51,576 nt of DNA. Origin: Nemertoderma westbladi. Lineage: Eukaryota > Animalia > Xenacoelomorpha. This document shows, piece after piece, positions 1,559-45,870 of this stretch (position 1 is the first letter of the stretch; the number at the start of each line of letters is the position of its first letter). Position numbers and translations under genes: made by a program. The notes beneath the pieces were generated by a model, which saw only the letters and a list, made by a program, of their open reading frames with translations, did no database searches and was not told the origin of the DNA. Where the stretch lies: NCBI GenBank assembly GCA_032718475.1, contig JAUCBJ010002662.1, positions 1-51,576 on the forward strand, given 5' to 3'.

Positions 1559-2804
1559 TGTTCGCGCTTTTAAGACCTTTGGCAGTTTAACCCGCCAAAT
1601 CTATATGTCTTCTAGGTTATAAATCTACTCCAGCCTATGACAAGTATTGAACACCTATAATAATTCTAACATTAGCCGAAGCCAGTCTGTGCGCGACCAT
1701 TCACCCGCTGGATATACCCGGGAGACTGGATTCGGATGCTTTAATTTGATTGCGGTGCAGGCCTACCGTACTATTCGATTGATCGTTAATATATAATCTC
1801 TGACAAATATTATTCACTTTCGGGAAATATTAGCAGTTCCTTTAGGACGTGGCGCTCTATCTATTTAAACAGAGCTATGACTTACACTATACACAACGGT
1901 ATGTCTTATAGATCACCAAAGTGCATTCTTTAGGAAATGCTTTGTTACTCGGTCAAGCACACACAGACTATTGCACACAAATGCACACTGAATTGCCGAT
2001 ATTCACTGATTTTAATCATATATAAAGAGAACAGCAACCAACATTTGTAGGGCCTATTAAGTAGCATTGAACTCACTACAAACCACGATAATGTATGTCG
2101 TAAATTGTTATATGTAACCGGTCTCTCTAACCTTAGTGTATCAAGAAGATTGGGTTTTCGGATCGTTATCAATATTCTTCCCAATAATAATATGTAAACG
2201 AATGATACAATTAACAACAAAGTAAATAGCAGTAAATAATGCGGCGAAAAGCAGTTTACGTCAGGGTGCTTAATCAGATGCCGAGTTTACCAAGACCGAG
2301 ACCGAGACCGAGACCGAGGCCGAGATAACAGTTTGATGATCTTATAATTAAAGACGCTCTAATGTCAGAAAACATTCCCTGGCCGGTGTTCTAGGCGTGG
2401 GGGAAACGTCAGTACTGAATCCTGTAATTCTGCTGTACAGCTTTTACACAAAGAGGGAATCTCTGATTGGTCAAATGGCAAAAAGCTCCACGTGGAAACA
2501 GCTGATAGATGTCGTCATTTTGAGCTGAGCAGAACAAAGAACCAAGGCAAGGCTCCGGGCAAGCTACACGTGTAAAGCTCAGCCGTTAGCTGTCGTCATA
2601 GTAACGACACTGTTTCAAGAGGATCTAGGGCGTTGCGTAATAGAATTGCTAATTATGTCCTCTAAAGTACACATACAGAAGAAATAGCTTTTATGTCCCC
2701 TAAAAACACCGGTACAGCAATGACACGGCCTTTTATGCCTGCTAAACCAACTACAGAGCACTTTACGGGGAAAATAACCGGGCAATTCCGCAAAAGCTTT
2801 TACA
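1559..2804 (-). repeat. Element B 3' LTR (1246 bp)
   Basis: Direct repeat of 12030-13246; about 10 substitutions by eye plus 6-bp and 23-bp indels. Confidence 0.95.
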
Positions 2805-5799: not shown

Positions 5800-8700
5800 T
5801 TATGTTATGGAGTCCCTAGATATTTGTCGGATTAGGGAAGTGGTTGTAGGAAGAGTATCTTGCCTTCCATAGTTTCCGGACAGTTTTTGGTCTCTTTCCA
5901 GTAAACATAAACGACCAGCTGGGCGATTGAGTTGTTGTGTTACTTTCTCCGCTCCCTTGGCCTGTCTAATCTCCGCCGTGGTAAGATGAGGAGGCCATTC
6001 TTCTTCTTCTTTACTTAAGAAGTCGGATCCACCTAACCAGCCTGGAGTATCTATCAGTTCTTGAGGAGTTGCTCCTCTGGAAGCAATATCGGTTGGATTA
6101 ATCGTCCCAAGGCAATGTCTCCATTGATCTACATTGGAGTTAATATCGTCATTATCTGAGGAGTATGGTGTTCCCTCAGTTGGGTCGTCCACCTCACTGC
6201 TCTCCACTTCCCATTCCTTTACTTGGTATACCTGTTGTTGAGGTAATCTCTCTTTGAGAATTCTACGGGAAGGGCCAGTGAAGTACCAACCTACTCTAGT
6301 TCTTACCGCATAGGTTTGTAGTGGCTGTGGTTGAGCAGGCCGTTTCTCCAATGTCTCTAGCGCCTCATGCGCGTTTTGGCCGATGAGTATTTGCACTCCA
6401 GGATAATCTGTGTGAAATCGAGGTATCTTAAGCTGCTGGATGCTCTCGTCCTCGTCCCAGTTATAAGGTTCTACTTGGGTAGTAGCGAAGTTCTTTATAG
6501 CCACCATTTTTACTGACCTTATACTTTGTTCTCCTAATTTATCCTGGGGGGTGGACAACGCACCTACATAGTAATCTGCCGTTATGGTAGATTTCCAAAC
6601 CTGCATAATTCCTGACATATTCAACTTAGTTCGGAATTTGGGTTGTTCGATGATATGTTATTCTTGATCGATGAATGTTCCTGTGCTGCCGGAGTCAAGG
6701 AGGGCGTTCACTATGCAACTTTTGTTAGGACCGTGAACTCTTACCTGCACCACAGGGAATTCTCTGATTCCTACGTTGGAAGTTGGAGGTTTCCAAGATG
6801 GTTGTCTGTCAAAGGTAGTTGGGGGGAACTCATTGTCGGTGTCCTTTTCATACGTAAGTGCTCGATACACTGCGGTATTTATTAGGTAACATGATTCGTT
6901 GGCGTCAGAGAATTCGTCCGTATAGAATCCTTCCATCTCAGATTCTTGATCAGTGTCATTTACATCACTGAATTGGACATGTAGTTCGGGCTCACTTACC
7001 TGACTCGGGTTGTTTCGTTCGAATTCACTGTGTAACAAGATGTGATGTTTCGCACCGCACTTTGCACACCTTAAGTCGGAGTAACAGGTTCGCCGTTGGT
7101 GTCCTTGTCTGAGGCAATTATAGCATAACCGCTTATCCCACATGACTTCACGTCTGTCTACCAGGGATTTCTTTAGGAATTCAGCACACACACTCAAACG
7201 GTGGGGCCCGTCGCACAGCGCACATTTTGGTTTGATGTTACTCACTTTACCTTGGGCAACGTTATGCACTCTCGTTCTTTCTTTGGGCTTTCTTCCGTGA
7301 ATTATCTTAGGAGACGTAGGAGGAGTTGTTGTTACCTGTTCTCTCCTGTCCCTGGTTCGAGGATTATATATACTTACGTCTTTATAGGTCTTGTTATCAT
7401 AGTAAGATTTTGCTGTGTCTTTCCCGCTGTCCTCTTCCTGAGAGACTTGGCTTTCGCCGTCGTCAGTATAACAAACTGGTGTTACCCTTCTCCTAGAAAC
7501 GGGTTTCTCACTTACCTTATTTTCCGATGTTTTCTCTCTGGACTGCTTTATGAGTTGTAATTTTACTTCACTATCTAAGAAGGACATGAGATCAGCCATG
7601 GTAGGGTCTCGTTGTTGTTGTTCCATCATATATAACACTTTCTTGTCCCAGCGTGTACCTACTCCACCCTTTGGTAAAGTAGATGCTAAGGCTCCTACAA
7701 CCATAGAGTTCTGGTATTCATGAGACTTACCTAACCAATCTAGTTGTCTACAGATCTCCTGAATCTCATCGGAAAAATCTATAATCCCGCTGCTAAGAAA
7801 CTTTCGGGGCGCCATTAATTTCGCATATAAATACCTAGCTATGTTAGTCCTATTACCATACCTGATGTTTAATGTATCCCAAACTTGTCTTAATCCATCT
7901 GGATGTCCAATAAACTTTAACGCCATTAACTTGGGAGGTCCTTCCAAGCACTTGATGAGGAATCTAAGTTTCTCTCCGTTAGATAGTACAGAGTTCTGTA
8001 TGCCATCTTTGTAATATTCATTGAAAGGTAACCATTTTATCTCATCTCCATTGAATTTGACGATTTCTCCCACTTTGACCGCTTGGCGGGCTTCTGTTCT
8101 AGCCATCTGACGCGTAAAGCTTTCTTGGGCCATCGTATTATTTAATATCGAATTATCGGTATATAAATTTCTCGGATTATTATCAGGTCTATAGGGAATA
8201 TCATTAACAACAGGTTTATAATCACCCTTAATAGGGTTTGCTATAGGAGTTTCTACTTCACTAGCAGTATAGATGCATGTAGGCTCCACACCTTGCGCAT
8301 GTAATACTTCAGACCTAACAGGTTGACACAATGTTACAGGGGGTATTGGTATACCCTTTTGTATATTGACTAATTTGTCGCGTTCTAGCGCGATGCTTTG
8401 CTGCACTTCTTGCAATTCTACCCTACTTTCCCTTACTGTTCCCTTAAGTTGGTGGACAGTCTCCTGCATCTGTCTGAGCAGGAGATTTATCCCCCGCCGT
8501 CCCTCCTCTACCCACTCGACCGCCGAAGCGGGAGTCGCCAACATTGTAGCGGGCCGACGCGGGACGATGGGAGACAAATCTTTGATTTCTCTCTCAGCGT
8601 CCAGGACAGGGATTTTCTCATAGATTGTTCTACCGGGTACAGGCAGTGTAGTACTGTGTAAAGGGAATTTAGAGTTAAGCTCTGGAAGTACAGGGGTCTC

Positions 8701-9840
8701 TAGCACAGGAGTGGCTTTGGGAACGACAGGCCTAATTATTTCAGGCTCATCGACTATCGTAGGGAGTCTTTTGACCTTAATAATTTGGTCTGTGGGTTCT
8801 GTACTACCTAAGTCTGTGCTAGCTAGTTGTCTTCTAACAGCTGGGGGCAAATCAGGCAATTTGTGACGGTGAGATGTTTTTCTACGCCTGCTTAGACGAG
8901 ATCTATTTCCTCCGCCTTCAGGATCGGTGGTCTCGCCTTCCTCCGATGATGTTTATCCCTGGTGTTTGGGAGTAGATCGACTCATCATCTGCATTTGACT
9001 AGCAGTTAATTGTTTATTTATGTTGTCTTGCGTCTCTTGCAGATTTTCCAACTCCAGTTGGGTAGTCTCCTCAGACGCTCTCCGTTCTGCTTCTGCCACT
9101 GCCTTTGCCGCCTTTCTTTCCACTTCTGCTTCTGCCATTGCCGCTGCCTTTTGGTCCTCTATCCGTCTTTTCTTTACTTGTTCTTCTTGGACTCTAGCGA
9201 GGCGGAGTTTTTCATCAAATTTAGCTTGGTTTGCAGCTAACATTTCCGCATCGATTGCGTCCAACACAAGCTTTGTTCCTTCACTATTAGGGCGAAGTCC
9301 AGACAGTTGTCTCCTCAACTCTTTGTCTCCTAGGAATCGCTGATAGTCTGACAGATAGATGTCAATGGCGTCTCTAGTTCGCGGCTTCTCTGCTGCTGTT
9401 AATTCGCTTTCCACTTCGCTTTCCACTTGAGAAGAAGTGGCGTCGGTTGATTCTTCATAGGTTGGCCGCTCATCATAAACCGTATCCGCCATCTTCGCTC
9501 CGCGTTCGGGCGTCCACTCAACAGTATCCGAACTACTGGAGCTATCGGGCCGCTGAGAACTAGGTTCTTGGCTAGGAGGTTGCTGCTGTTTTATAGCTGC
9601 TTCTTGATCCCGCTTGACTTGGGCCTGAGTGCCTATGGCAGACCAACGGCGCTTCACTAACTTCGCAAATTGTGAAATCGCTTCTACCAACCTAGGTTCT
9701 GACACAACCACTGCAGGGGTTGCCCTTCTTACAGTATGAGGGGTTTCAGACCTCGGTCTGGGATTCTCTACACTTTGATCTGAGAAACAGGCTGTTGTTT
9801 CTAGGAGACTATCTGACAGAGTTTGCCTTGTGTCAGCCAT
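5800..9840 (-). pseudogene. gag: Element B gag-protease polyprotein with RNase H C-terminal remnant; two in-frame stops
   Basis: ORFs 8953-9840, 6658-8859 and 5800-6624 are one frame. Motifs: KFNGDEIKWLPF (DUF1759-type capsid), CALCDGPHRLSVC / CYNCLRQGHQRRTC / CAKCGAKHHILLH knuckles, ALLDSGS protease, TRVGWYFTGP, then directly QWRHCLGTINPTDIASRG…WP. No YVDD RT and no integrase. Confidence 0.9.
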
Positions 9841-12018
9841 TTTTGATTGTACAGTTGAATGCCTACTGCTATATTACAGTTAAAGCAAGTCTAGTAATTC
9901 AGTATTACTGTTAGCCTAACAATTAATTACCGATACTGCTACTCAGTGTAGCGTGATATATATAATATATTAGAATACCGGTATGCTTATAGTAGATATA
10001 TAAGTATTATTACAGACTAGATTTGTCACAGAATACCGGTATATAATTTTAGCACAAATATATATAAATATATAATAGGCCTATCGTGAATACCGGTATA
10101 CAGCTGACACTTATAGTATATATAAGTATAATTATTACAGACTAGAGTTAATTACAGAATACCGTTATGATTTCAGCCTAAATTTATAGAAATAAATATA
10201 ATAAGCCTATTGTAAATACCGGTATGTCAATTATTTTAAAATAATTGAATTGCTGAAGGTTAGGGGTTACTTGGTTACTTTACTTACTTTATTACCGTTA
10301 TTTGAGCAGCTGTCCAACTGATATTAAGACCTAAGTGTTGTATAACAGGCCTACTATTTTATTAATAGATTTAGTGGATTTATATGTACCCGTATGAGGG
10401 GTTTTGTTACAATATTGAAATAGATGTTACTATTTCTGGGAAATAATCACTACACAGAAGCTGTGCGCTCTCAGTGAAGTGCTACTTATTGGACACTAAA
10501 ACAGATAATTCTACTTCCTAAGTTACTTAATACTACAATAACGTACAATTCGGGATGAGATTACAATTTCTAAATAAATACAAAAAATTACAAAAAACAC
10601 AAATACGAATTTTTAGGGTAATTTTACAAGAAGTCTACAAACCAGCCTAACAAAGGGTTAGAAATCTGGTTATTACAAATGGACAGGATACTACGGTATT
10701 TGAAAATAATAAGTAGTAGTAAATACACTGCGTTGTCCAGATAGGAAAATACCACCACCTGACGACCTATAGCCGTATCGCTATAGGTACTACGTTATGT
10801 ATCACGGAGTGTCCCTACCTAGAAGTTAATTACCGCGGTCTACCAGAACCAACGTGCCTATTAACCACTTTACAACACAAATATACTGCCTACACACTAA
10901 TTACCTTCGGAAAGCACTGTACACTAAACCCTAAATTAGGTACAAGTACTTGTACAACAAATAATCAGTAGTTAAAAATACTTGAACAGCTAAAAGAACC
11001 ACGGCATCTGCTGGAGTGACCGGTGCACAAAATCACCAGTCTTTACCTACGCCAAGCAGCCCGTGTAGTACCGGGGTTAATTTAACTATAACGGTATATA
11101 TAACAAGCACAATTACTGTAGGAATAAACTTAGGGATATGAATGTTGCGAATAATCGCATAAACTCTGAATAATAAATATTACGCTACCCGTACAGAATA
11201 CTCAAACAAAATACAAACTAAACGCTGGCAGACTACCATCAAGCCTAAATAAACTACAGTATGTGCAGATTCCAAAATGGTTAGTTAGTATGCGTTCTAA
11301 CACGGTAGTACGACTTATTCTTTAGGAGGGGGTTGACCTTACAACTCAAGATGCCCCAACTTACTAACTGGCACTTTATCGGACAGACTCTACACACGCA
11401 GCAATCTCTTCAGACCTAATAACAGCTAGACAACAATCCAGCCTACAAAATATCTGAGTAATAACTATTACGGTACCTGAACAGACCACACAAACAAACA
11501 CAGGCTAAAACGCTGGCAGACTACTATCAAGCCCAAATAAACTACAGGACATGCAGACTCCGAAATGGTTAGGTAGTATGCGTTCTAACCTAGTAGTACG
11601 ACTTATTCTTTAGGTGGGGATTTACCTTACAGCTCTGGCTGCCCCTACTTCCTAACCGTTCTTTATTGGACATACACTCTACATGCACTGCAATCCGTTC
11701 AGACTTAACAACAGTCAGAACAACAGTTCAGCCTACAAATTATCTGTACAATCTGAGCAGGGTTACACGCCTTCTGCTCAATATTAGCCTACTAGTAAAT
11801 AAAACTGACAGAAATAAGTAAAAATCCCAATAAAAAACCAGGGCTGCAGTCCCCGATTTAATATCAAGACCTACCGGTATATAATTATCAAAATCGAATA
11901 ATACTGCTGTACCTGTACTGTTGTAAGTACCGGTCCGGATGAACAGGCAGTCAGGCCTACTGGTTACCGGTCGACCGGTACTTTAGTCTTGATCGCTTAT
12001 GCCGCAATCAAGATCCTA

Positions 12019-12029
12019 CAAACTGTTAT
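12019..12029 (-). promoter_or_regulatory. Element B PBS-position sequence ATAACAGTTTG (not tRNA-type; complementary to LTR 12790-12800)
   Basis: Directly follows the 5' LTR on the minus strand; no TGG; exact 11-nt reverse complement lies inside the LTR. Confidence 0.7.
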
Positions 12030-13246
12030 TGTTCGCGCTTTTAAGACCTTTGGCAGTTTAACCCGCCAAATCTATATGTCTTCTAGGTTATAAATCTACT
12101 CCAGCCTATGACAAGTATTGAACACCTATAATAATTCTAACATTAGCCGAAGCCAATCTGTGCGCGACCATTCACCCGCTGGATATACCCGGGAGACTGG
12201 ATTCGGATGCTTTAATTTGATTGCGGTGCAGGCCTACCGTACTATTCGATTGATCGTTAATATATAATCTCTGACAAATATTATTCACTTTCGGGAAATA
12301 TTAGCAGTTCCTTTAGGACGTGGCGCTTTATCTATTTAAACAGAGCTATGACTTACACTATACACAACGGTATGTCTTATAGATCACCAAAGTGCATTCT
12401 TTAGGAAATGCTTTGTTACTCGGTCAACCACACACAGACTATTGCACACAACTGCACACTGAATTGCCGATATTCACTGATTTTAATCATATATAAAGAG
12501 AACAGCAACCAACATTTGTAGGGCCTATTAAGTAGCATTGAACTCACTACAAACCACAATAATGTATGTCGCAAATTGTTATATGTAACCGGTCTCTCTA
12601 ACCTTAGTGTATCAAGAAGATTGGGTTTTCGGATCGTTATCAATATTCTTCCCAATAATAATATGTAAACGAATGATACAATTAACAACAAAGTAAATAG
12701 CAGTAAATAATGCGGCGAAAAGCAGTTTACGTCAGGGTGCTTAATCAGATGCCGAGTTGACCAAGACCGAGACCGAGACCGAGGCTGAGATAACAGTTTG
12801 ATGATCTTATAATTAAAGACGCTCTAATGTCAGAAAACATTCCCCGGCCGGTGTTCTAGGCGTGGGGGAAACGTCAGTACTGAATCCTGTAATTCTGCTG
12901 TACAGCTTTTACACAAAGAGGGAAAAGCTCCACGTGGAAACAGCTGATAGATGTCGTCATTTTGAGCTGAGCAGAACAAAGAACCAAGGCAAGGCTCCGG
13001 GCAAGCTACACGTGTAAAGCTCAGCCGTTAGCTGTCGTCATAGTAACGACACTGTTTCAAGAGGATCTAGGGCGTTGCGTCATAGAATTGCTAATTATGT
13101 CCTCTAAAGTACACATACAGAAGAAATAGCTTTTATGTCCCCTAAAAACACCGGTACAGCAATGACACGGCCTTTTATGCCTGCTAAACCAACTACAGAG
13201 CACTTTACGGGGAAAATAACCGGGCAATTCCGCAAAAGCTTTTACA
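12030..13246 (-). repeat. Element B 5' LTR (1217 bp)
   Basis: Direct repeat of 1559-2804, followed by TSD TAGGC. Confidence 0.95.
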
Positions 13247-13251
13247 TAGGC

Positions 13252-14815
13252 CTATACTGGTACCAGTACAGCAGTATGACTACAGCATGCAAGGACATAA
13301 CATATACCCAGGGGAGGGGGGAATCATTGCGGATAGATGCATGGGCCCCAATATATTAACATCAACCCCAGTACCAAGCATACCGGTGGGGGGGGGGGCA
13401 GGGTGATATTCCCCCATATCAACAATATACCCCGATAGGAGCAAGAACAACGAGACCCTTGGATGGAAATAGGTCATGTGACACAGAAATATGGAGGGGG
13501 CCGCTACCCCCAATGACATATCCAAGCCAAAGAAAGGCAGAAAATAGGACGGGCGGACCACACCCAACAGGAGAAACTATACAACATCCATCGAATCCAT
13601 TGGAAGCGCAGGCGATGGGGATGGCCACGTTGATCGATGCATTAAAAACAAGGATCGAATTACCACCCGTGGAACCATTCAAATTCGATGGGAGTAGGCC
13701 GGAAGAATATCTCCAGTTTTGGCGTATGTATAGTAACGAAATACTAACAAAGAACTTGACGCAGGCGGAGTGCTTAAAGTATCTGCAAGTATACACTGGA
13801 GGCCCAGCATACGACATCGTGAGGCAATATCAGGGCATAGAGGGCGGCTTCACGACGGCATGGCGGGCACTGGACAGGGAATACGGGCACCCGGCAAGAT
13901 CATCAGGCAGACCAGACCCTGAGAGGCATAACATCGGGTGGTCTACAGGATAATCCCGTTAGCATTAAGACACTCGCGAACAAGGTCGAGAAGGCGCTAA
14001 TCGTGTTAAAGATGCTAGACGCGCCATACGAACTCAACGCGTCCAACAACATCACCACGATAGCGCAGGCGCTACCGATGTGGTTGCGCAACAAGTGGAG
14101 GAAAATCGCTTTCTCCACTCGAGATAGGAAGGGTGCGGAACCGGTTTAGAAGAAATGTCAAGCTTCTTAAACTACGAAGCTGAACTAATAACCGACCCAG
14201 TCTATAGCGAAAATAGCCTGGGAAAGGGACCGAAGACGGATTACCATAGACCGAAACCAGAGCACAATACGTCAAACGCATTACCGAAGCTCAGGCAATC
14301 ACTGCCATATGCAGCGACGCAGAGGACTGCAAGTCCACAGGTAGCCGAAGGTAAGACCACACCATGGAACGGACAGGGGAACAATAACAACACGAATAAA
14401 TATAACCCCAGTACGTCCAGTAGGCCGAACCCAAACAATAAGAATAGTAGGGACTTTGGTACAAATGCAGCTGCGATACGCAATGCACTGTATAGTGTAT
14501 AATGAGGGCTACGACCCAAAGAGCAAATGCCAGCTACATACAAATGCGCTTCATCAAACCATGAACTGCAGGTACTGGCAAGCGCTACCCAGGGAAGATC
14601 AGGTAGAATATGCGGCGAGGAATGAGATCTGCTCGCGATGTGTGATGAGTGGACATAGAGCTAGGCAATGCAAGGAGACGCCAGTCAAGTTCGGTCAAAG
14701 GAAAGGCCAAACGATGGCAACGAGCACAGTAGGGGCGAAGAAGAGAGGAACGGTGCTACTTGGGGTAGTACCTGTGCGAGTGATTGGAGAAGGCAATTGA
14801 TCAGTAACAACACTA
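13252..14815 (+). pseudogene. gag: Element A gag, capsid and zinc-knuckle region, frameshifted
   Basis: ELPPVEPFKFDGSRPEEYLQFW…AWRALDREYGHP (DUF1759-type), CQLHTNALHQTMNC and CSRCVMSGHRARQC knuckles, spread over several frames. Confidence 0.85.
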
Positions 14816-17800
14816 ATGCTGGTTGATAGTGGAGCTGCCTTCACATTAGTCGAGGATTGGGTGGCCGAAGAAATTGGATTGAGAACGAGGCCAAGTAGAA
14901 TGGCGGTAACAACCATCTCCAGCAAAGATGAGGTCCTGGAGATGAGAACCGGACGGTGCACCATTGCAGCAATAGCGCCAGGATGCGACTATGGGGCGAG
15001 CATCGACCCCATCCAAGTGATAGAGTCAATAAACATCAATGCCAGACGGCCAACCAACATCGAGGTCAAACAATATAAATTTCTGGATGATATCGACTTC
15101 TCAATCCCAGAGGTGGACGTTAGGAAGGTATCCATCATAGTAGGAATGGACTGCCCAACGGCCCACGAAAGAATGCAAACGGTCTTCGGCGAAGACAAGC
15201 AGTGTGACCCGGAGGCGATACTGACACCATTCGGGTGGACGCTGAGTGGCCCAATCAAGAGCAAGATACCATTTAGGATGTCGGAGACATCAGGATGCAT
15301 GTTCGCAGGAACTATGCAGGAAATGAGTGATGAGAGAGCAGAGGAGCAGCTTAAAAGACTGCTCAGACAGGATTTTGAAGGGTTAAAGGAGACTGGGGTC
15401 GGGACCTCGGTGGAAGACAAACAGGCTCAGCAGAGCGTAGCGGAGTCTATGAAATGCGACGAGGGGCGGTACACCATAGGAATGGTATGGAAGCTACCAA
15501 AGCTACCACTGCCCGATAATAGAGGGATGGTACTCACGAGGCTCCGCAAGCTGAAGCAGACACTAAAACGGAGCCCCGAGAAGAATGAGTACATCCACAG
15601 AACGATTAAGAAGTACGTCGAGAAAGGATGGGCCGTGGAGTTACCGGTCGACGAACCAAACACAGACAGGACATATTACCTGCCACTCCACGTGGCTTTA
15701 GACCCAAAGAAAGGTAAACTGCGGATGGTAGTTGACGCATCGGCAAAGACCAACGGAAAATGCTTAAACGACAATTGACTAGAAGGTCCGAACATATACA
15801 ACTCAGGGATAGAGGTCCTACTTAGATTTAGAAATGGGAAACATGCCTTCACGTGTGACATAGAAGGCATGTTCAACCAAGTCCGTGTAACGGAGGAAGA
15901 TAGCGACAGTCAACGCTTCTTGTGGTACAACGGTGACAAAGAACCGTCGATAATACCGACGTACAAGATGGTAGTACAGAACATGGGAGCCAAGTTGTCT
16001 TCATTTACGACGACTATGGCAGTAAGAGATACAGTGAAGGGGAAGGAGGATAGATACAGCACTAGGGCCGTCGATATGATTCGACGCGGCTTCTACGTAG
16101 ACGACGGAATGGAGTTTGGAAATACGGTTAAGGAGATACTGGACACAGGGCGCGAGGTTCGCGACATCCTAAAAGGATCCGGCTTTAACCTGACCAAATT
16201 CCAATCCAGTTTGGAGGAATTTATCAAGGCGATAGGGGACGAGAGACCAGAATCGACCATGGATAATCCCACAACAGCCAAAGGGCAGGACATGGCGAAC
16301 AAGAGGACAGAATCTCAACAGAAGGCACTGGGAATCGTGTGGAACAGAGAGACAGATGAACTGAAGTACCAGCTGAGCCAGGAGGGCGCAGACATCCACA
16401 CAAAGAGAGGCTATGTGTCATACATAGCAAGAATATACGATCCCCTAGGTCTAGCATCCCCACTATTAGTCACGGGGAAACAGATACTCAAGAGAGTATA
16501 CAAACTGAAGGATGAGTGGGACGTAGAGGTACCAGAGGAGATCAAGAAACAGTGGTGTAAGTGGAAAGAAGGTTTGGAGAAGATGGGAACATACAACATG
16601 CCGAGAGTGTATTTCCCGGATGGGAACATGACGAATCTGGACTTACACATGTTCTCCGATGCGTCGTTGGAGGCGTACGGAGCGGCACTCTATTTAGTAC
16701 AACGAGAGGGGGCTCACAAGCCCAGACTGGCCTTTAGCAAAGCTAAGTCAACGCCGCCAGATTCAGCATCAGTTCCCAAACTAGAATTGACAGCTGCCAG
16801 ACTAGGAGTTAGGGCCACAGCCTACCTAGTGGATACTATTCCCAACATAGTGGAGACACACTACTGGACGGATTCCATGGTAGTGCTTGGTTGGCTACAT
16901 AACGAAAGGACGAGATACCCTATATTCGTCGCAAATAGGGTGGATGAGATAAGGGCGACCACAGAATTGGAAAGGTGGCACTACTGCCCAACGGACGAGA
17001 ACCCAGCGGACTTGTTATCAAGGGGCGTGGCACGCCACACTTTCTTAAAAAGGGAAGGATTGTGGCAACACAGGCTGCAGTTTCTGAGCGACAAGGAGGC
17101 CTGGCCGCCGATGAGAAAGATGGACCCAGGCTCAGGAGAGGTAGTGTCAGAAGGAGAAGAGGGAGATTCAGAGGGAGAAGAGACATACTCCCAGATGGTG
17201 AGGGAGATAAGGGACGTGCAACCTAAGCCAGAAGAACTGTGCGATAACCCGACGGTTAAACTCCTCAGCTACAGCTCTAGTTGGTACAAGACCAAGAAAC
17301 TAGTGGCGTACTGGAGAGCCTTCGGGAATTTCCTTGCGGGAGTTGGCAAATGTAAGAAGATCAGGACAACAATAGATCTGTAAGAAGCCGCCAAAGCAGT
17401 AATCCGCTATGAACAACGGAAGAGCTATGGCGACAAGGTGGAACGCGTCGGTAAACAACAGCACCTTCGACGGGACAGCGAGCTGATCACGCTGTCGCCA
17501 CAACTTAATGACGACAGGATTCTAGTAATGAATTCTAGGGTGGGATACAACAACAGCATAGTCGTACCACCGAAACCCATCATCATTCCCACAGGATCGC
17601 CAATAGTTCACCAGATTATCTGGGACTCCCACAAGTCGATATTGCACGGGGGCACCAACCGAACTCTTATGGAGATACGGAGGACCTTTTGGGTCAAGCA
17701 GTTGAGGAAGAAGGTAAAAGCAGTAGTGGGGCAGTGCCAGACCTGCCGACGAGCGAAGAAGGAGCGAGCCATACAAAAGATGGCACCACTACCAGCGAGT

Positions 17801-18710
17801 AGAGTAAGACAGCACGACCCGCCATTTACACATTGCGGTGTGGACATGTTCGGGCCGATAAAGATCAAGGTGATGCGGCACACGGAGAAACGCTACGGTA
17901 TTATCTTCGTATGTAACAACACGCATCAGCATCACGCAACAACACCCAAGATGCAACCGCATCAGCATTTATTAATGCATTAGAAAGGTTCAGAGACCGC
18001 AAAGGTGGGACGATCGCAGTAATGTACTCCGACAGCAGAACCAACTTTGTGGGAGCAGAGAACGAGATGGCAGAGGCCTTGGACATCCTGGAAGGGGAGG
18101 AAGTCAGGGCAGCCATGAGACGACGACAAGTAAAGTGGGAGAGAAGGACGCCGTATGCACCACATACACTAGGATGCGTCGAGAGACTGGTGGGCAGTTT
18201 GAAGCGTCTCATGACGAAGTTAATGAACACCCACATGGTCACGGAGGACGTCTTGAGAACAGTACTTGCGAAGTGCGAGGGTATCATTAATAGCAGACCG
18301 CTATATCCGGAGAATGATGACCCTGAGTCATTAGATGTGCTGACGCCCAGCCATTTTCTAATGGAAAGGCCAGCGACCATCAATATGCGGGGTGTAGACC
18401 CAGATGACATACACTCCCGCCAGAGTTGGAAGGTCGCTAAAGCGATAAGCGCAGAGTACTGGAGAAGGTTGGTTGAGGAATACCTACCCACGCTTCACAA
18501 AAGAAGCAAGTGGAGGAAGTCGAATAGGGAGTTAAGAGAGGGAGATCTCGTAATCGTTACGGATGATACTATCATCAACAACCAGTGGCAGATGAGGACG
18601 GAAGAGTCCGATCGGTAGAAGTGCGGATAGGTGGCAAGATAGGTGCGAAAGACAGAAAAACCTACAGGAGAGCTGTAGGGAAATGCTGTCTATTAGAAGG
18701 GACACCTTAG
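14816..18710 (+). pseudogene. pol: Element A pol: protease, RT, RNase H (peptidase A17-type region), integrase; stops and frameshifts
   Basis: LVDSGA; YYLPLH…KLRMVVDAS; FYVDD; LHMFSDASLEAYGA; WHYCPTDENPADLLSRG; HKSILHGG…CQTC; GVDMFGP; SDSRTNF; LTPSHFL; EYLPTLHKRSKW; in-frame stops at 15776-15778 and 17381-17383. Confidence 0.93.
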
Positions 18711-24198: not shown

Positions 24199-24733
24199 TG
24201 TTAGCGTATTCAATTCCGCTAACACAAACCCATAAAGTAAGCCGTTAAGCAATGTTGGGGGCCACGAGGTTGATTACCCAATGTCGTGCCACCCCAATAA
24301 AATGGGAAGGAGAAACACACAATAAGGGTCAGGGGCCACACCCCTGACCAAGAGAGAATAGCAGGAGTGAGGGGAAACACTCCAAAGGGCGCCAACAGGG
24401 ATATTCGCCAATGGGAGGGAGGCACCGGCTAGGTACAGTAACAAGGCCAACCTGTGCAATATAACCAATTGACAGTAATCAGTTATTTCAGTTATCTCAT
24501 TGTGTTGGTCGGTTTAGCTAGGATAGGACCGGAACTTTAATTACCGTTGCGTAACCACTGTGCAGACATCCTATTCCATATCTATACTATTATACTTTAT
24601 ACATAGGACTTTATACAGCAATCAACAACCATCCACCTTTTACACACACACGGCGGGAACGCGTAAATCAAAAACCGGATAAACCAGGATCCTTTGTGGA
24701 TCCCGTCACAAACCGTAAGAGAATCAACTAACA
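24199..24733 (+). repeat. Probable 3' LTR of element A (535 bp)
   Basis: Starts TGTTAG after the PPT, ends CTAACA (6-bp inverted termini); contains AATAAA, CCAAT and a TATA-like AATATAA. Partner LTR not in window. Confidence 0.65.
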
Positions 24734-28887: not shown

Positions 28888-29460
28888 TAAAATGGATGAT
28901 GTTCACTATAAAATGAATGATGTTCACTATAAAATGGATGATGTTCACTATAAAATGGATGATGTTCACTATAAAATGGATGATGTTCACTATAAAATGG
29001 ATGATGTTCACTATAAAATGGATGATGTTCACTATAAAATGGATGATGTTCACTATAAAATGGATGATGTTCACTATAAAATGGATGATGTTCACTATAA
29101 AATGGATGATGTTCACTATAAAATGGATGATGTTCACTATAAAATGGATGATGTTCACTATAAAATGGATGATGTTCACTATAAAATGGATGATGTTCAC
29201 TATAAAATGGATGATGTTCACTATAAAATGGATGATGTTCACTATAAAATGGATGATGTTCACTATAAAATGGATGATGTTCACTATAAAATGGATGATG
29301 TTCACTATAAAATGGATGATGTTCACTATAAAATGGATGATGTTCACTATAAAATGGATGATGTTCACTATAAAATGGATGATGTTCACTATAAAATGGA
29401 TGATGTTCACTATAAAATGGATGATGTTCACTATAAAATGGATGATGTTCACTATAAAAT
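28888..29460. repeat. 21-bp minisatellite (TAAAATGGATGATGTTCACTA) x ~27
   Basis: Near-perfect tandem array, one variant unit (atgaatg) near the left end. Confidence 0.97.
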
Positions 29461-29656
29461 CCATTGGATGGATAACAAATCGGCTGAATCATTTCCCTAC
29501 CAAACGATACATACGTTCCTGTATACCGGATAGACTTATCATCAGCCAGTAACCACAATTCGTTGTATTTGTAGAGTTTAGGGGTTAATGGTACTGTGAG
29601 ACAGATATCCAACGTCTAGCGGTACTAAACCTACCAGAGGCGTAGCAAGACCTTAT

Positions 29657-31083: not shown

Positions 31084-32244
31084 TGTAAAAGCTTTTGCGT
31101 AATTAGCCGGTTATTATCCCTGTAAAGTACTCTGTGGTTGGTTTACCAGGCATAAAAAGGCCGTGTCCTTGCTGTACTGGTGTTTTAGAGGACATAAAAG
31201 CCATTTCTTCTGTATTTGTACTTTAGAGGACATAATCCGCAATTTCGTGACGCAAAAAGCTCGATACTCTTGAAAACAGTGTCGCTACCATGACGACGGC
31301 TAACAGCTGATATTGCCACGTCGACATTTCTTTGTTTCTTTGTTCTCTCGTTGTTCGGTCGACCAATCAGAGCGTTTTTTGTCTCTGTGTTGGAGGTGGA
31401 TACAGAAACTCAGGAATTCAGTGTTATGTTTTTGCCCAGAGCCTAAGAACACCGGCTTTTGGCACCTCCGTGTTTCAGTCTTTAGTCTTACATTAGTAGG
31501 CTTAATTATAGAACGTATATCTGTTATCAATGCAATTCATATCTCAACTAACTAAACATATCATGCATATCTTACTTAACATTACTGCTTTTGCTGTCGG
31601 TTATTCATTATATTTGTTGATGGAAGATTATATTTGGAATACTGATCAATAGTCAGACACCCCAATCTTCTTGATATACTAAAGGTTAGAGAGACCGGTT
31701 ACAGATAAACGATTGCGACTTATGTTAAGTGTCGTGAAGTGAATCTAATGCTATTTTATAGGCCCTACATGCATTGTCTGTTATTCTCTTTGTATGTGAC
31801 TAAAATTAGTGAAGGTCGGCAGATTGGTGTGCAGCATTGTGCAGCATTGTGTATGATTGTGACTGATAACAAAGCATCTCCTAAAGAATGCGCCATATAC
31901 GTGAATCTATAGCCATCTCATTGCGTCTAGTTTAAGTCATAACTCTGTTTACATATTTAGAGCGCCACGTCCTAAAGGAACTGTTAATATTTCCCGAAAG
32001 TGAATAATATTTGTCAGAGATTATATATTACGATCAGTCGAATAATACGGTAGGCTTACACCATCAATCATTAAGCTTCCGAATTCAGTCTCCCGGGTAT
32101 ATCCAGCGGGTGAATGATTGCGCATAGACTGGCTTCGGCTAATGTAGTGTATCAAATACTCGTCATAGGCTAAAGACTATATATCATCTAAAAGACATCC
32201 TAATTTGGCAGGTTAAACTGTCAAAGGTCTTAAAAGCGCAAACA
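31084..32244 (+). repeat. Element C 5' LTR
   Basis: TGTAAAAGC…GCGCAAACA; direct repeat of 44710-45870. Confidence 0.95.
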
Positions 32245-32255
32245 ATAACAGATAT
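32245..32255 (+). promoter_or_regulatory. Element C PBS-position sequence ATAACAGATAT (complementary to LTR 31517-31527)
   Basis: Directly follows the 5' LTR; no TGG; exact reverse complement ATATCTGTTAT lies inside the LTR. Confidence 0.7.
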
Positions 32256-34854: not shown

Positions 34855-35310
34855 TATATACATAAAAAGTGTAAGCTGCATACCGGTATTCACGATAGGC
34901 CTATTATATATTTATATATATTTGTGCTAAAATTATACCGGTATTCTGTAACAAACCTAGTCTGTAATAATACTTATATATACTATAAGCATACCGGTAT
35001 TCTAATATATTATATATATATCACGCTACACTGAGTAGCAGTTTCGGTAATTAATTATTAGGCTAACAGTGATACTGAATTACTAGACTTGCTTTAACTG
35101 TATTTATAGCCGTAGGCATTCAACTGTGTAAACAAACATGTCTGACACAACCCAATCACTGTCGGATAGTCTCCTAGATAGTGTTAGAATGACTGTTAGA
35201 CAGTGTCTTAAAAAGATCAGTGACATCCTAGCCAAGAACCTAGTTTTCAGCGGCCCGATAGCTCCAGTAGTTCGGATACTGATGAGCGGACGCCCGAACG
35301 CGGAGCGAAG

Positions 35311-37121
35311 ATGGCGGATAAGGTTTATGATGAGCGGCCAACCTATGAAGAATCAACCGACGCCACTTTTTCTCAAGAAGAAAGCGAAGTGACAGCAGAG
35401 AAACCGCATAAGAGGGATGCTATTGACATCTATCTGTCAGACTATCAACGCTTTGTAAGAGATGAAGAGTTGAGGAGAAGGTTGGAGGGGCTTAGCCCTA
35501 ATAGTGAAGGAACCAAGCTTGTGCTGGACGCAATCGATGCGGAAATGTTAGCTGCGAACCAAGCTAAATTTGATGAACTCCTCCGCATCACTAGAGTCCA
35601 AGAAGAGCAAGTAAAGAAAAAACTTATAGAAGACAGAAAGAAAATAGCAGCGGCAGCGGCAGCGGCAGAGGCAAAAGCGGCAGAAGCAAAAGCGGCAGCA
35701 GCGGCAGAAGCGGAAAGAAAGATAGCGGTGGCAGAAGCAGAACGGAGAGCGGCTGAAGAGATCGCCCAATTAGAATTGGAAAACATTCAGGAGAATCAAG
35801 ACTGCATAAATAAACAGTTAACAGCTAGTAATATGCAGATGATGAATCGATCTACTCCCAAAAGACAGGGATATACATCATCTGAGGAAGGCGATACCAC
35901 CGATACTGAAGGCAAAGGAAATAGATCTCGTCTAAGCAGACGTAGAAGAACATCCCACCGTCAGAAATTGCCTGATTTGCCTCCAGCTGTTAGAAGGCAA
36001 CTAAATAACACAAACTTAGGTAGTACAGAACCCACAGACCAAATAATTAAAATAGAAAGACTCCCTACTATAGTAGATGAGCTTGAAATAATTAGGCCTG
36101 TTCCCAAAGCCACCCTTTCGGTGGTAGAGACACCTGTACTCCCTGAACCTACCTCTAAATTCCCTTTGCACAGTACCAAGCTACCTGTGCCCAGCAGAAC
36201 AGCCCATGAGACAGTTCATGCCCTGGACTCCGAGCGAAATATTCATGATTTGTCGCCCGTTGTCCCTCGTCTGCCCGCTACAACGTTGGCGACTCCCGCT
36301 TCGACGGTCGAATGGGTGGATGAGAGACGGCGGGGGATGGATCTCCTGCTCGGGCAGATGCAGGAGACTGTTCAGCAATTCAAGGGCACAGTAAGGGAAA
36401 GTAGGTTAGAGTTGCAAGAAGTGCAGCAAAGTATCGCGTTAGAACGCGATAAATTAGTAAATACACAAAAGGGTTTACCACCACCCCCGGTAACAATGTG
36501 TCAACCTGTATCTCATGCGCAAGGTGTGGAGCCTACACGCATATATACTGCTAGCGAAGTAGAAACTCCTATAGTGAACCCTATTAAGGGTAATTATAGA
36601 CCTGTTGATAATGATATTCCCTATAGACCTGATCATAATCCGAGAAATTTATATACCGATAATTCGATATTAAATAACACGATGGCCCAAGAAAGTTTTA
36701 CGCGTCAAATGGCTAGAACCGAAGCCCGGCAAGCGGTAAAGGTGGGAGAGATCGTCAAGTTCAATGGAGATGAGATGAAATGGTTACCTTTTAATGAATA
36801 TTACAAAGATAACATACAGAACTCTGTGCTATCTAATGGAGAGAAACTTAGATTCCTCATCGAGTGCTTGGAAGGATCTCCCAGTTTAATGGCGTTAAAG
36901 TTTATTGGACATCCAGACGGATTAAGACAAGTTTGGGATACACTAAACATCAGGTATGGTAATAGGAATAACATAGCTAGGTATTTGTATGCAAAATTAA
37001 TGGCGCCCCGAAAGTTTCTTAGCAGCGGGATTATAGAGTTTTCCGATGAGATTCAGGAGATCTGTAGACAATTAGATTGGCTAGGTAAGTCTCACGAATA
37101 CCAGAATTCTATGGTTGTAGG
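35311..37121 (+). pseudogene. gag: Element C gag, 5' part (interrupted by LINE; original ATG probably 35138)
   Basis: Homologous to element B gag up to HEYQNSMVVG; MSDTTQSLSDSLL at 35138 matches the B N-terminus but is out of frame after a deletion/replacement. Confidence 0.9.
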
Positions 37122-39549
37122 TGTTTCCAAAAGGTAGATATGGATAAATTTATATCCAAAATGGAAAGAATTGACCCCCCCATAGTTACAGAGGACAATT
37201 TAAATCAACAGGACATACAAAGAATCATAGATGAATGGTTTAATACTGTGGATGACACCGCAAGTGAATGCAGCCTACTGCTTGATGATAAGCGCATTAG
37301 AAACCAGGATCCAAATATTTCCCGTTGGATAAAACTTCTAACCTCCCATGATAGCAAAGAAATATGGAATGCTTTAGACTGGAACGGTTGTATAGATGAA
37401 GTTAATAAACCAGTGGGTGAACAACATGATAGTCCAAGCGACGATCAGTTCAAACATCATTTCGAAACACTCTTAAATCCAGATAATGAGTCGATTGGCA
37501 TGGACGAGGTGGATACATCAGATGGACCTTTCATTCCTTTATTAGACAACCCCTTCTCGGAAAGAGAGCTAGCGGAAAGTCTCGCGGATCTGAAACCTGG
37601 GAAAGGCTATATCGGCGTTAGTCCAGGTCTTATTACGCGTCTACCAGGATCCTGGTTGTTATTTATTCTCTCTATGTTTAACGCAATATTCTTAAATACG
37701 GTTTTTCCTGCAACATGGGCAATCAGCAAACTTATCGTATGCTTCAAATCTGGTACACGATCCGAGTGCGGTAACTACCGTGGATTAAGTATTATGTATA
37801 CACTTGCTAAGTTATTTGATATACTTTTATACAATCGTTTAAGGGTATGGGTTAATATAGATAAATGCCAAGCTGGAGCGCAAAAAAATAGAGGTTGTCT
37901 GGAACAGATAATGAGTCTACGCCTTTTGATAGACTTCGCTAAGTTTAAAAAGTGTAAATTGTTTATAATATTCATTGATTATAGCAAAGCCTATGATCGG
38001 GTACCGAGACAAAAATTAATAGCGGAACTCAAACTACTGGGATGCGGAGCTGTAATGTTATCAATAATAAAGGCCCTGTATTCTGGGACAAAATCAATAC
38101 TGAAATCAACAGTGATTTTTACAGCGATAGGAGTAAGGCAAGGTGCTCCGACTAGCGGACTGCTATTTTGCTTATATCTTAACAGACTAATTAGAATGTT
38201 AAAAGATGCAGTCCGACAAGATGGCTTTTTGGGGGGATTAGTGGCTCTCCTGTTTATGGATGATACAGTAATTCTTTCAACAACTCGAGATATAAGTGTA
38301 ATTAAATTAAAACGGTTGGCAAAATTTTGTAGAATTTCAGGGATGGTAGTAAATGAAAAGAAAAGTAAATTTTTTGTAATAAATGGGAATAACTCAGATA
38401 GATTACCGTTTCAGATGGATAATTTTACTATTCGTGCATGTGAATCTTATGTATATTTAGGGTCTATATTTTCAGCAGATGGTAGAATTTCTACAGTATT
38501 AAAGCTACATGAAATCAAATGCGAGCACATTGTAAATAAATTTACCATATTTTGTATGAGAAATTCCGAAATACCTTTTGCATTAAAGAGACGAGTTTTT
38601 GATGCTTGTGTAGTTAGCGCTCTTTTATATGGTTCTGAGTCATGGTTAAGTAATAATTTGAGAAATATTGAGAAACTATATAATAGACTAGTTAGGATAT
38701 TACTTTCTGTGCGTACACAAACCCCAATAGATATATGTTTAATAGAATCAGGTATCCCGCCATTGAAACACTGGATTTTAACAGCTCGTAAACGTTATGT
38801 GAAACAACTATTATTATTATGTGACAATGAATTACCCATAGTTAAGGTTTTTAATATGTGCAATATGAATAACACCCCTGGTTATAAATTACTAATGGAA
38901 TCCCTCGACTATAATAATAAGGACCCTCTAGATACTGTTAGGACGAGGATAATAAATAAGCCAATGACAGCGACTAAATTTAATACGTACAGAACTACAA
39001 TGAACCCCGACTTGAAACCACACCCCATTTACTCCTGTTTAAATCCGCTGATCCCCGACCACAACAGAAAACATTTCACTAAATTGCGTCTAATGTCCCA
39101 CAGACTTAAGGTTGAAACGGGTCGTTGGAGTCGCATCCCTCCTGAGCAACGTATCTGCTGCTGTAACACTAACCTAGTACAAGACGAGCCTCACGTACTA
39201 TTATTTTGTCACCTGACGGATGATATACGAATAGAATACGGACTAAAATATAATAGTTTGATAGACTTGTTTAAAGAAACGTACAGTGCACCGGTACTAC
39301 TATGTAAATTTATTGAAGCAGTATTAAAAGTTTTTTCGAATAATTAATTAATAAATTAGAAATAATAATATTAGTAAGTGTTATTTACTTTTATATTTAC
39401 TTAGTTTGTGCAAAAATATACTGAGTATATTAATATTGCTGTTTGTTGCGATCGTAATACATTACTATTACGCTATACTGTAGTGTGCAAAATATGATTT
39501 GGCGAAAATTAAAGGCTGAACGGGCCAGTAAACCGTTCACTACTACTAC
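37122..39549 (+). mobile_element. 5'-truncated non-LTR retrotransposon (LINE; RTEX/CR1-group-like)
   Basis: Absent from element B; flanked by TAGG (37118-37121, 39550-39553); 3' stem-loop TGAACGG…CCGTTCA followed by (TAC)n tail; no endonuclease domain left. Confidence 0.9.
37140..39347 (+). CDS. Non-LTR reverse transcriptase with C-terminal Cys/His motif (735 aa, uninterrupted, N-terminally truncated)
   Basis: GNYRGLSI, QAGAQKNRGC, FIDYSKAYDRV, GVRQGAPTSGLLF, LLFMDD, YVYLGS, and HRLKVETGRW…RICCCN…QDEPHVLLFC. Confidence 0.9.
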   Translation: MDKFISKMERIDPPIVTEDNLNQQDIQRIIDEWFNTVDDTASECSLLLDDKRIRNQDPNISRWIKLLTSHDSKEIWNALDWNGCIDEVNKPVGEQHDSPSDDQFKHHFETLLNPDNESIGMDEVDTSDGPFIPLLDNPFSERELAESLADLKPGKGYIGVSPGLITRLPGSWLLFILSMFNAIFLNTVFPATWAISKLIVCFKSGTRSECGNYRGLSIMYTLAKLFDILLYNRLRVWVNIDKCQAGAQKNRGCLEQIMSLRLLIDFAKFKKCKLFIIFIDYSKAYDRVPRQKLIAELKLLGCGAVMLSIIKALYSGTKSILKSTVIFTAIGVRQGAPTSGLLFCLYLNRLIRMLKDAVRQDGFLGGLVALLFMDDTVILSTTRDISVIKLKRLAKFCRISGMVVNEKKSKFFVINGNNSDRLPFQMDNFTIRACESYVYLGSIFSADGRISTVLKLHEIKCEHIVNKFTIFCMRNSEIPFALKRRVFDACVVSALLYGSESWLSNNLRNIEKLYNRLVRILLSVRTQTPIDICLIESGIPPLKHWILTARKRYVKQLLLLCDNELPIVKVFNMCNMNNTPGYKLLMESLDYNNKDPLDTVRTRIINKPMTATKFNTYRTTMNPDLKPHPIYSCLNPLIPDHNRKHFTKLRLMSHRLKVETGRWSRIPPEQRICCCNTNLVQDEPHVLLFCHLTDDIRIEYGLKYNSLIDLFKETYSAPVLLCKFIEAVLKVFSNN

Positions 39550-39553
39550 TAGG

Positions 39554-41456
39554 AGCCTTAGCATCTACTTTGCCCAAGGGTGGAGTAGGTACACGCTGGG
39601 ACAAGAAAGTGTTATATATGATGGAACAACAACGACGAGACCCTACCATGGCTGATCTCATGTCATTCTTAGATGGAGAAGTGAAATTACAGCTCCTAAG
39701 GCAGTCCAGAGAGAAGACACTAGGAAACAAGGTAAGTGAGAAACCCGTTTCTAGGAGAAGGGTAACACCAGTGTGTTATACAGACGACGGCGAAAGCCAG
39801 ACTTCTCAAGGAGAGGATAGCGGGAAAGACACTGAAAGATCTTATTATGTCAATAAAACGCCTAAAGACCAGGTAAGTAAATTCAAGTCTCGAACCAATG
39901 ACAGGAGAGAACAGGTAAGAAAAACTCCTCCTACGTCTCCCAAGAGAATTCAGGTGAGAAAGCCCGAGGAGAGAACGAACGTGCACCACACAGCACATGT
40001 TAAAGTAAGTAACATCAAGCCCAAATGTGTGCTGTGCGATGGGCCCCACTGTTTAAGTGCGTGTGATGAATTCCTGAGGAAATCACTAAAGGACAGACGT
40101 GAAGTCATGTGGGATAAGCGGTTGTGTTATAATTGCCTCAGACAAGGACACCAACGGCGAACCTGTTACTCCGACGTAAGGTGTGCAAAGTGCGGCGCAA
40201 AACATCATATCTTGTTGCACACGGAATTCGAACGAAACAGCCCGAGTCAGGTAAGTGAGTCCGAACTACATGTCCAATTCAGTGATGTGAACGACACTGA
40301 CCAATATTCTGAGATGGAAGGATTCTATACGGACGAATTCTCCGACGAAAACGAATCCTGTTACCTAACAAATACCGCAGTGTATCGAGCACTTACGTAT
40401 GAAAAAGACACCGACAGCGAGCCCCCCCTAACTACTTCTGACAGACAACCATCTTGGAAAGCACCACCTTCCAATGTAGGAATCCGAGAATTTCCTGTAG
40501 TACAGGTAAGGGTCCACGGACCTAAAAGGAGTTATGTAGTGAACGCCCTCCTTGACTCCGGTAGTACAGGAACATTCATCGACAAAGAACTAGCCGAAGA
40601 CATCTTTGCTGGACAACCCAAGTTCCGAACTAAGCTAAACATGTCAGGAATTATGCAGGTTTGGAAATCTACAGTAATCACAGATTATTATGTAGGTGCG
40701 TTGTCCACCCCCCAGGATGAACTAGGAGAACACAGCATAAGGTCAGTAAAAATGTTAGCGATAAAGAACTTCGCGACCAGCCAAGTGGAACCTTATAACT
40801 GGGATGAGGACGATTTCACCCAGCAGTTTGAAATACCTAGATTCAACACCGATTACCCTGGAGTCCAAATACTCATCGGTCAAAATGCGCATGAAGCGCT
40901 TGAGACATTGGAGAAACGGCCTGCTCAACCGCAACCTCTACAAGTTTATGCGGGAAGAACTAGAGTAGGTTGGTACTTTACTGGCCCTTCTCGTAGAACT
41001 CTTATGGAAAGATTACCAAAAGAACTGGTATATCAATTAAGTGAACGGGAAGTGGAGAGCAGTGAAGTTGACGACCCAACTGAGGGAACACCATACTCCT
41101 CAGATAATGACGACATCAACTCCAATGTAGATCAATGGAGACATTGCCCCGAGACGATCAATCTAGCCGACATCGCCTCCAGAGGAGCAACTCCTCAAGA
41201 ACTTACAGATACTCCAGACTGGTTAGGTGAACCCGACTTCCTAAGTAAAGAAGATGAACGGCCTCCCCATCTTAACCCGGCGAAGATTAGACAGGCCAAG
41301 GGAGCGGAGAAAGTAACACAACCACTCAATCGCCCAGCTGGTCATTTATGTTTACTGGAAAGAGACCGAAAACTGTCCGGAAACTATGGAAGGCAAGATA
41401 CTCTTCCCACGACCACCTCCCTAATCCAACAAATATCTAGGGACTCCATAACGTAA
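39554..41456 (+). pseudogene. gag: Element C gag-protease, 3' part, with RNase H C-terminal remnant
   Basis: Resumes ALASTLPKGGVG; knuckles, ALLDSGS, QWRHCPETINLADIASRG; removing the LINE restores one open frame 35311-41456. Confidence 0.9.
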
Positions 41457-44709: not shown

Positions 44710-45870
44710 TGTAAAAGCTTTTGCGTAATTAGCCGGTTATTATCCCCGTAAAGTACTCTGTGGTTGGTTTACCAGGCATAAAAAGGCCGTGTCCTTGCTG
44801 TACTGGTGTTTTAGAGGAAATAAAAGCCATTTCTTCTGTATTTGTACTTTAGAGGACATAATCCGCAATTTCGTGACGCAAAAAGCTCGATACTCTTGAA
44901 AACAGTGTCGCTACCATGACGACGGCTAACAGCTGATATTGCCACGTCGACATTTCTTTGTTTCTTTGTTCTCTCGTTGTTCGGTCGACCAATCAGAGCG
45001 TTTTTTGTCTCTGTGTTGGAGGTGGATACAGAAACTCAGGAATTCAGTGTTATGTTTTTGCCCAGAGCCTAAGAACACCGGCTTTTGGCACCTCCGTGTT
45101 TCAGTCTTTAGTCTTACATTAGTAGGCTTAATTATAGAACGTATATCTGTTATCAATGCAATTCATATCTCAACTAACTAAACATATCATGCATATCTTA
45201 CTTAACATTACTGCTTTTGCTGTCGGTTATTCATTATATTTGTTGATGGAAGATTATATTTGGAATACTGATCAATAGTCAGACACCCCAATCTTCTTGA
45301 TATACTAAAGGTTAGAGAGACCGGTTACAGATAAACGATTGCGACTTATGTTAAGTGGCGTGAAGTGAATCTAATGCTATTTTATAGGCCCTACATGCAT
45401 TGTCTGTTATTCTCTTTGTATGTGACTAAAATTAGTGAAGGTCGGCAGATTGGTGTGCAGCATTGTGCAGCATTGTGTATGATTGTGACTGATAACAAAG
45501 CATCTCCTAAAGAATGCACCATATACGTGAATCTATAGCCATCTCATTGCGTCTAGTTTAAGTCATAACTCTGTTTACATATTTAGAGCGCCACGTCCTA
45601 AAGGAACTGTTAATATTTCCCGAAAGTGAATAATATTTGTCAGAGATTATATATTACGATCAGTCGAATAATACGGTAGGCTTACACCATCAATCATTAA
45701 GCTTCCGAATTCAGTCTCCCGGGTATATCCAGCGGGTGAATGATTGCGCATAGACTGGCTTCGGCTAATGTAGTGTATCAAATACTCGTCATAGGCTAAA
45801 GACTATATATCATCTAAAAGACATCCTAATTTGGCAGGTTAAACTGTCAAAGGTCTTAAAAGCGCAAACA
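44710..45870 (+). repeat. Element C 3' LTR
   Basis: Preceded by GGGAGCGG (44702-44709), followed by TSD GGGTG. Confidence 0.95.

Follow-up and report, generated by a model that had tools for sequence, protein, structure and literature searches.

Candidate self-priming of reverse transcription from the LTR of two RT-less BEL/Pao elements in Nemertoderma westbladi

Two RT-less BEL/Pao elements of Nemertoderma westbladi, here termed B and C, are likely to start reverse transcription without a tRNA, using as primer a piece cleaved from the 5' portion of their own RNA. From the pairing patterns described below, we put the probability of this reading at roughly 0.7; when the versions that would draw the primer from the 5' copy and from the 3' copy of the LTR are counted together, self-priming from the element's own RNA appears highly probable. 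Both elements lie in the window, a stretch of 51,576 nucleotides (contig JAUCBJ010002662.1, positions 1 to 51,576) that also holds a third BEL/Pao element, A (Table 1). An earlier reading of the same DNA, the original prediction, had proposed tRNA-independent self-priming in BEL/Pao, with RT and RNase H supplied in trans. This core gains support from concerted changes between B and C, from 13 of 16 related loci and, weakly, from relatives of A. Its Tf1-type detail, in which the RNA begins with the 11-mer itself, loses ground to pairing that extends further 5' and to relatives with predicted spliced primers.

Table 1 Features of elements A, B and C, numbered from the first letter of the window
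Feature	Position	Strand	Remarks
Element B	13246-1559	-	LTRs 96.9% identical; TSD GCCTA
B 5' LTR	12030..13246	-	1217 bp
B predicted self-primer site	12790..12800	-	exact reverse complement of B PBS; LTR positions 447-457
B PBS	12019..12029	-	ATAACAGTTTG; no TGG
B coding region	5800..9873	-	gag, protease, RNase H tail only; in-frame stops
B 3' LTR	1559..2804	-	
Element A	13360..18618	+	BEL/Pao gag-PR-RT-RH-IN, several stops; host of B
A 3' LTR	24199..24710	+	TATAA 24460, initiator-like A 24490, predicted primer site 24536-24544
Element C	31084-45870	+	LTRs 99.7% identical; TSD GGGTG
C 5' LTR	31084..32244	+	1161 bp, TG...CA
C CCAAT box and TCAGT initiator-like word	31362..31423	+	common to the 3' LTR of B; candidate upstream start
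C upstream arm of extension helix	31509..31513	+	pairs with 32259-32263; overlaps TAATTATA motif
C predicted self-primer site	31517..31527	+	exact reverse complement of C PBS; LTR positions 434-444
C LTR arm, leader partner	32053..32077	+	predicted; partner 32256-32279, just 3' of PBS; crosses primer helix, pretzel-like; 8/100 shuffles as good
C LTR arm, LTR-end partner	32118..32123	+	predicted; partner 32236-32241; 30/100 shuffles as good
C PBS	32245..32255	+	ATAACAGATAT; no TGG
C coding region	35224..41456	+	gag (DUF1759), protease, then ~50 aa RNase H tail
C 3' LTR	44710..45870	+	short purine tract just before; second site copy 45143-45153

RESULTS

B and C are young BEL/Pao elements without RT

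B and C are non-autonomous BEL/Pao derivatives, and both are young and lack RT. Each has a 5-bp TSD and LTRs bounded by TG...CA. Pfam identified DUF1759 together with a protease in both elements, and the RNase H tail resembles Pao-type proteins; tblastn with nine homologues and four pieces of A found no RT, integrase or remaining RNase H in either, only this tail of ~50-100 aa. In C, a LINE-type RT ORF (37089-39347) is inserted in gag and splits the coding region. The two elements are homologous, with ~85% identity across long internal blocks; B is inserted in the gag of element A, and C in a satellite. Their gag-PR shares only 22-26% identity with that of BEL relatives, and without RT they have no place on an RT tree; a homologue search with the B gag-PR ORF as query returned no homologues. 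Contigs matching 31300-32500 numbered 8404, 4311 and 1984 in runs X1, X2 and X3, respectively, indicating a very high-copy, variable family. A search for the LTR-end pattern gave no matches in metagenome contigs, and no relatives were found among viral contigs. Rfam gave no matches on 31084-33200, and ARAGORN gave no tRNA genes in the window or in the 23 (of 98) related loci scanned.

The satellite holding C is GC-rich, with a 46-50-bp unit, and occupies 30078-31083 and 45871-48045; a 21-bp tandem array lies at 28741-29586. A tandem duplication of ~290 bp is present in the leaders of both C (32525-33108) and B (11165-11746). The long 3' region of C carries a 151-aa ORF at about 43465-43920, for which there was no Pfam family and atlas gave leads only, the best at 0.83.

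The 11 nt behind the 5' LTR pair with the element's own LTR

Directly behind the terminal CA of the 5' LTR, at offset 0 in B and C alike, begins an 11-nt block that is the exact reverse complement of a site within the same LTR. Both matches had been put forward in the original prediction, and in both the letters and coordinates were confirmed base for base. Also as claimed there, neither PBS starts with TGG, a word absent from the first 8 nt after the LTR in both elements. Seven of the 11 PBS letters are common to B and C, and three of the last four differ, with the LTR partner altered in step, which agrees with the earlier description. Because B and C are homologous, the shared 7-nt core counts as one event, and the three concerted changes form the independent part of the evidence. 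This core may resemble a tRNA anticodon loop. The site falls in the least conserved stretch of the B/C LTR alignment, and its retention is therefore not a by-product of general similarity. The copies readable at both site and PBS number two, B and C; among the run contigs listed for 31300-32500, no piece covers the two together.

Among 3000 dinucleotide shuffles of each LTR, a match of at least 11 nt arose at offset 0 twice for C and twice for B, and 11 (C) and 6 (B) times when offsets 0-5 were allowed. Among other leader positions, an 11-nt match occurred at 1 of 2880 in one element and at 0 of 2880 in the other. Duplex energies were -19.8 and -17.3 kcal/mol for the cognate partners, compared with -14.1 and -8.0 kcal/mol for the swapped ones. 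A published self-primer screen looks for a complement of at least 10 bp whose start lies 0-5 bp behind the LTR, according to the accessible part of its source (PMC6317226); B and C have 11 bp at offset 0. The site lies 717-760 nt from the PBS in B and C, a distance much longer than in relatives. In folding restricted to nested structures without pseudoknots, the probability of the primer helix varied with the start that was assumed, from 0 to 0.33 in C and from 0.15 to 0.85 in B.

C contains a second near-complement of its PBS at 31774-31785, with 11 pairs including one G-U; it is not kept in B, and most of the family depth has G at 31783. A 10-nt spliced primer for C, made by joining the site to a GTTA close to the LTR end, was rejected, the acceptor being missing in B. 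Conserved in the LTRs of both elements are a donor-like AG/GTTAGA, an acceptor-like TTTGTCAG and a branch-like word, within 31685-32017 (C LTR 602-934; B LTR 645-976).

Related BEL loci pair with their own LTRs

Ninety-eight related loci (79 + 19) from other assemblies were gathered via alignment of the RT-RH of A with 25 homologues; 80 of them span at least 4 kb, 37 of these 80 carry a direct repeat more than 3 kb apart, and 16 in which the LTR 3' end could be read were picked by eye. TGG is absent from the first 8 nt after the LTR in all 16. Thirteen pair over 10-13 nt with their own LTR, starting 0-5 nt after it, either contiguously (four loci: L005, L012, L014, L057) or across a predicted GT-AG junction inside the LTR (nine loci: L003, L013, L030, L041, L053, L065, L082, L087, L089). 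The match rule admitted offsets 0-5 and pairing that was contiguous or crossed such a junction. Following a first pass, it had been widened from offsets 0-3 and given a stricter donor pattern; the control was run under the final rule, which 12 of 1800 control positions satisfied in a pool that included B and C. The three loci below 10 nt were L084, in which the repeat does not flank the BEL match, L097 (9 nt) and L085 (8 nt; inspection by eye suggests a junction that includes one mismatch). Because three locus pairs are close kin, the loci amount to ~10 independent lineages. For six further loci of which the LTR start alone is known, 4 of 44 candidate ends reach 10 nt (L009, L090, L031, which equals L030, and a doubtful end in L006). 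The RT-RH tree was a quick version without named BEL clades, and A sits on a long branch in it.

Sister loci L087 and L089 behave like B and C, with the distal three letters of the PBS and the junction changing together. In the nine loci with predicted junctions, only 3-8 paired letters lie on the upstream exon, which implies a longer 5' extension of the RNA. L005 has an acceptor-bearing LTR piece (1-326) at one end and a joined, intron-less form (6703-7103) at the other, and these two LTR forms suggest intron loss as the origin of contiguous sites. The contiguous site of B and C is likely such an intron-lost form of the relatives' splice-junction primer; an intron between site and PBS is possible in the B and C LTRs. 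Across this part of BEL/Pao, self-priming is likely and widespread.

Animal-type BEL/Pao also occurs in 19 contigs filed under bacterial MAGs (L080-L098), probably as host contamination.

Contigs related to element A

The 5' LTR of A lies outside the window, and the letters that follow the LTR end of A were read from contigs of related copies in four runs. Behind this end (24710), the contigs of X1 (7 contigs, agreement 0.63) and X3 (11 contigs, 0.55) begin with the same nine letters, the reverse complement of the predicted primer site of A; these are two of four runs, from two samples. The contigs of X5 (5 contigs) share only the first four of the nine letters, and X2 (18 contigs) gave no signal. 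The 9-mer was present in 37 of 5000 shuffles. The last 35 nt of the A LTR have ~10x the depth of the remainder, and the contigs therefore mix related families and flanks. The relatives of A appear to lend self-priming weak, independent backing. In A itself, the predicted primer site is ~47 nt downstream of a TATAA and TCAGTT pair with 30-nt spacing.

A repeated GTTAT word near 24490 was ruled out as the primer of A, the contigs pairing with 24536-24544 instead, and 24733 was ruled out as its LTR end, which the contigs place at 24710. Between integrase and 3' LTR (20990-23227), A has extra ORFs (583 aa, with exonuclease-like motifs by eye, then Cys/His knuckles), in which no Pfam family scored above cut-off.

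Flanking helices and the transcription start

The pairing runs on 5' of the 11-mer in both B and C, with different letters. It resumes past a mismatch, as originally reported, with 6 bp after a 2x3 loop in B and 5 bp including one G-U plus two marginal pairs in C. Flanking helices with a pretzel crossing topology are predicted at homologous places in the two elements, and 8, 20, 30 and 38 of 100 shuffles equal them. The LTR-end arm shows one U-A/C-G double change between C and B; the other flanking arm does not covary. At most, these predicted helices are compatible with a Tf1-like pretzel.

The CCAAT and TCAGT pair of Table 1, which may mark an upstream start, lies ~80-95 nt upstream of the site. 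A 23-bp CCAAT-bearing segment of the B 3' LTR (~2460-2482) is missing from the B 5' LTR (12925). Neither LTR contains AATAAA, so R is undefined.

The TAATTATA motif 6-8 nt upstream of the site, present as first described, is central to the best-surviving alternative, namely self-priming from the 3' LTR copy. If this motif is a TATA box, transcription would start near 31539, the site would fall in U3 and exist only at the 3' end of the RNA, and the cut would probably be made on the partner RNA of a dimer. This scheme accounts equally well for complementarity and covariation; in C, a TATA-like word at 31508 is followed 31 nt later by an initiator-like TCATATC, and there is no AATAAA to fix R. 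However, B has no matching initiator at that spacing, the TATA-like words fit the consensus poorly, the clearest TATA words of A, L005 and L087 are located well upstream of the site, and the cut would remove the 3' R that strand transfer requires. We regard priming from the 3' copy as rather unlikely. For a primer taken from the 5' part of the RNA, the extended 5' pairing and the spliced relatives favour an internal fragment over the first 11 nt of the RNA.

Other explanations for the complementarity

A host RNA, either a tRNA half or another small RNA, could serve as primer, with the LTR complement acting as a regulatory switch that hides the PBS. Copia elements use truncated tRNAs without TGG, as the accessible parts of PMC6317226 and PMC10886601 describe. 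The PBS of B and C likewise lacks TGG, as in the half-tRNA priming of copia/Ty5 in those parts, and its first seven letters are fixed between the two elements. With a host primer, however, the PBS would be expected to stay constant, whereas B and C, which are 85% identical, differ in 3 of its 11 letters, and these track the LTR. Each of the 13 relatives, moreover, has its own PBS matching its own LTR or predicted splice junction. In our assessment a host primer is very unlikely.

Less probable still, the pairing could have been selected for dimerisation, packaging, splicing or translation control, with priming taking place elsewhere. Helices that span long distances in the 5' UTR are a common feature of LTR elements, and the predicted extension helix and pretzel arms exceed what a primer needs. 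The helix nonetheless starts exactly after the LTR terminal CA in B and C, and within 0-5 nt of it in the 13 relatives, where a primer must define the LTR end, and no TGG site lies nearby. A chance match in AT-rich sequence, to which two homologous copies, LTRs of ~1.2 kb and the second near-complement in C could be credited, is largely refuted by the offset-0 shuffles, the three concerted changes and the proportion of pairing relatives compared with controls.

DISCUSSION

We propose a plausible mechanism by which B and C would be copied from a primer of their own. First, transcription would start upstream of the site, with the CCAAT and TCAGT pair as a candidate or at a closer position. The site would then anneal to the PBS, possibly aided by the pretzel-like flanking helices. 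The LTR site is the most likely primer. The base to which its 3' end pairs is the first one behind the LTR, and priming has to begin there if this LTR end is to result. By analogy with Tf1/Tf2, RNase H of an RT supplied in trans would cut just 3' of the 11-mer, leaving a 3'-OH beside the LTR terminal CA. Minus-strand DNA would subsequently copy U5 and the remaining R and jump to the 3' end. Finally, the primer would be copied into the plus strand, so that every cycle would rewrite the PBS with the sequence of the LTR site. Such rewriting would account for the concerted changes and for a perfect block that ends sharply at 11 nt; the covariation would then be partly mechanical rather than selected, and would still indicate priming. 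At about even odds, we further speculate that a large marine-animal branch of BEL/Pao dropped tRNA priming entirely in favour of an internal primer from the 5' part of its own RNA, spliced within the LTR in most lineages, such that the host spliceosome licenses replication. B and C would be intron-lost, non-autonomous descendants with a PBS rewritten each cycle, and primers would drift freely between families.

The proposed scheme is reminiscent of Tf1, for which self-priming has been shown and in which, as in Tf2, RNase H cuts 3' of the duplex; a three-duplex structure termed the pretzel belongs to Tf1-type self-priming (accessible parts of PMC4600332, PMC5341516 and bioRxiv 2022.12.06.519325, the last for the pretzel). 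As in Tf1/Tf2/Tj1 and Tf1/sushi, to the extent that these sources describe them, the PBS of B and C follows the 5' LTR directly, is ~11 nt long, is complementary to the LTR and comprises no tRNA site. Flanking helices with pretzel topology are predicted in B and C as well, at a level that 8-38 of 100 shuffles equal. By their Pfam domains, however, B and C are BEL/Pao and not members of Tf1/sushi (Ty3/gypsy chromoviruses). Unlike in Tf1, their primer is probably internal, the pairing extends 5' of the core, the site is ~720-760 nt from the PBS, and no RT is encoded in cis; BEL relatives, also unlike Tf1, would build the primer by splicing.

Self-priming has been described for Tf1/sushi and predicted for the plant lineages Tcn1 (gypsy) and TAR/Houba/Osr-1 (copia), according to the accessible part of PMC6317226. 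B and C show the sequence feature behind those predictions. They differ from these lineages in being BEL/Pao, and that part describes no splice-junction form for the plant elements. The ICTV account of Belpaoviridae gives host-tRNA priming, with an 18-nt PBS for tRNA-Arg or tRNA-Gly (PMC8742986). B and C resemble this family in their DUF1759 gag, protease, Pao-type RNase H tail, TG...CA LTRs of ~1.2 kb and 5-bp TSD, but lack the 18-nt tRNA-Arg/Gly PBS as well as RT and integrase. No report of self-priming in BEL/Pao was found in the literature searched, which lay mostly outside subscription journals, Repbase reports and supplements, and an earlier mention is possible. The accessible parts of PMC3601003, PMC5443660 and PMC10886601 mention none, and those of PMC3118150, PMC554778, PMC6238403 and PMC8220671 hold nothing on BEL primer sites.

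If this BEL/Pao branch self-primes, the mechanism would be present in all three LTR superfamilies. It would bear on which came first, self-priming or tRNA-priming, and would account for the failure of PBS-based annotation to detect such elements. With an internal primer, spliced in relatives, the geometry would be distinct from that of Tf1. An element-encoded primer-like RNA has reportedly been seen for the C. elegans BEL element Cer7.

A TTAATTA motif upstream of the B/C site (31501-31511) resembles the predicted primer site of A (24535-24546) and is possibly a relic of an older primer.
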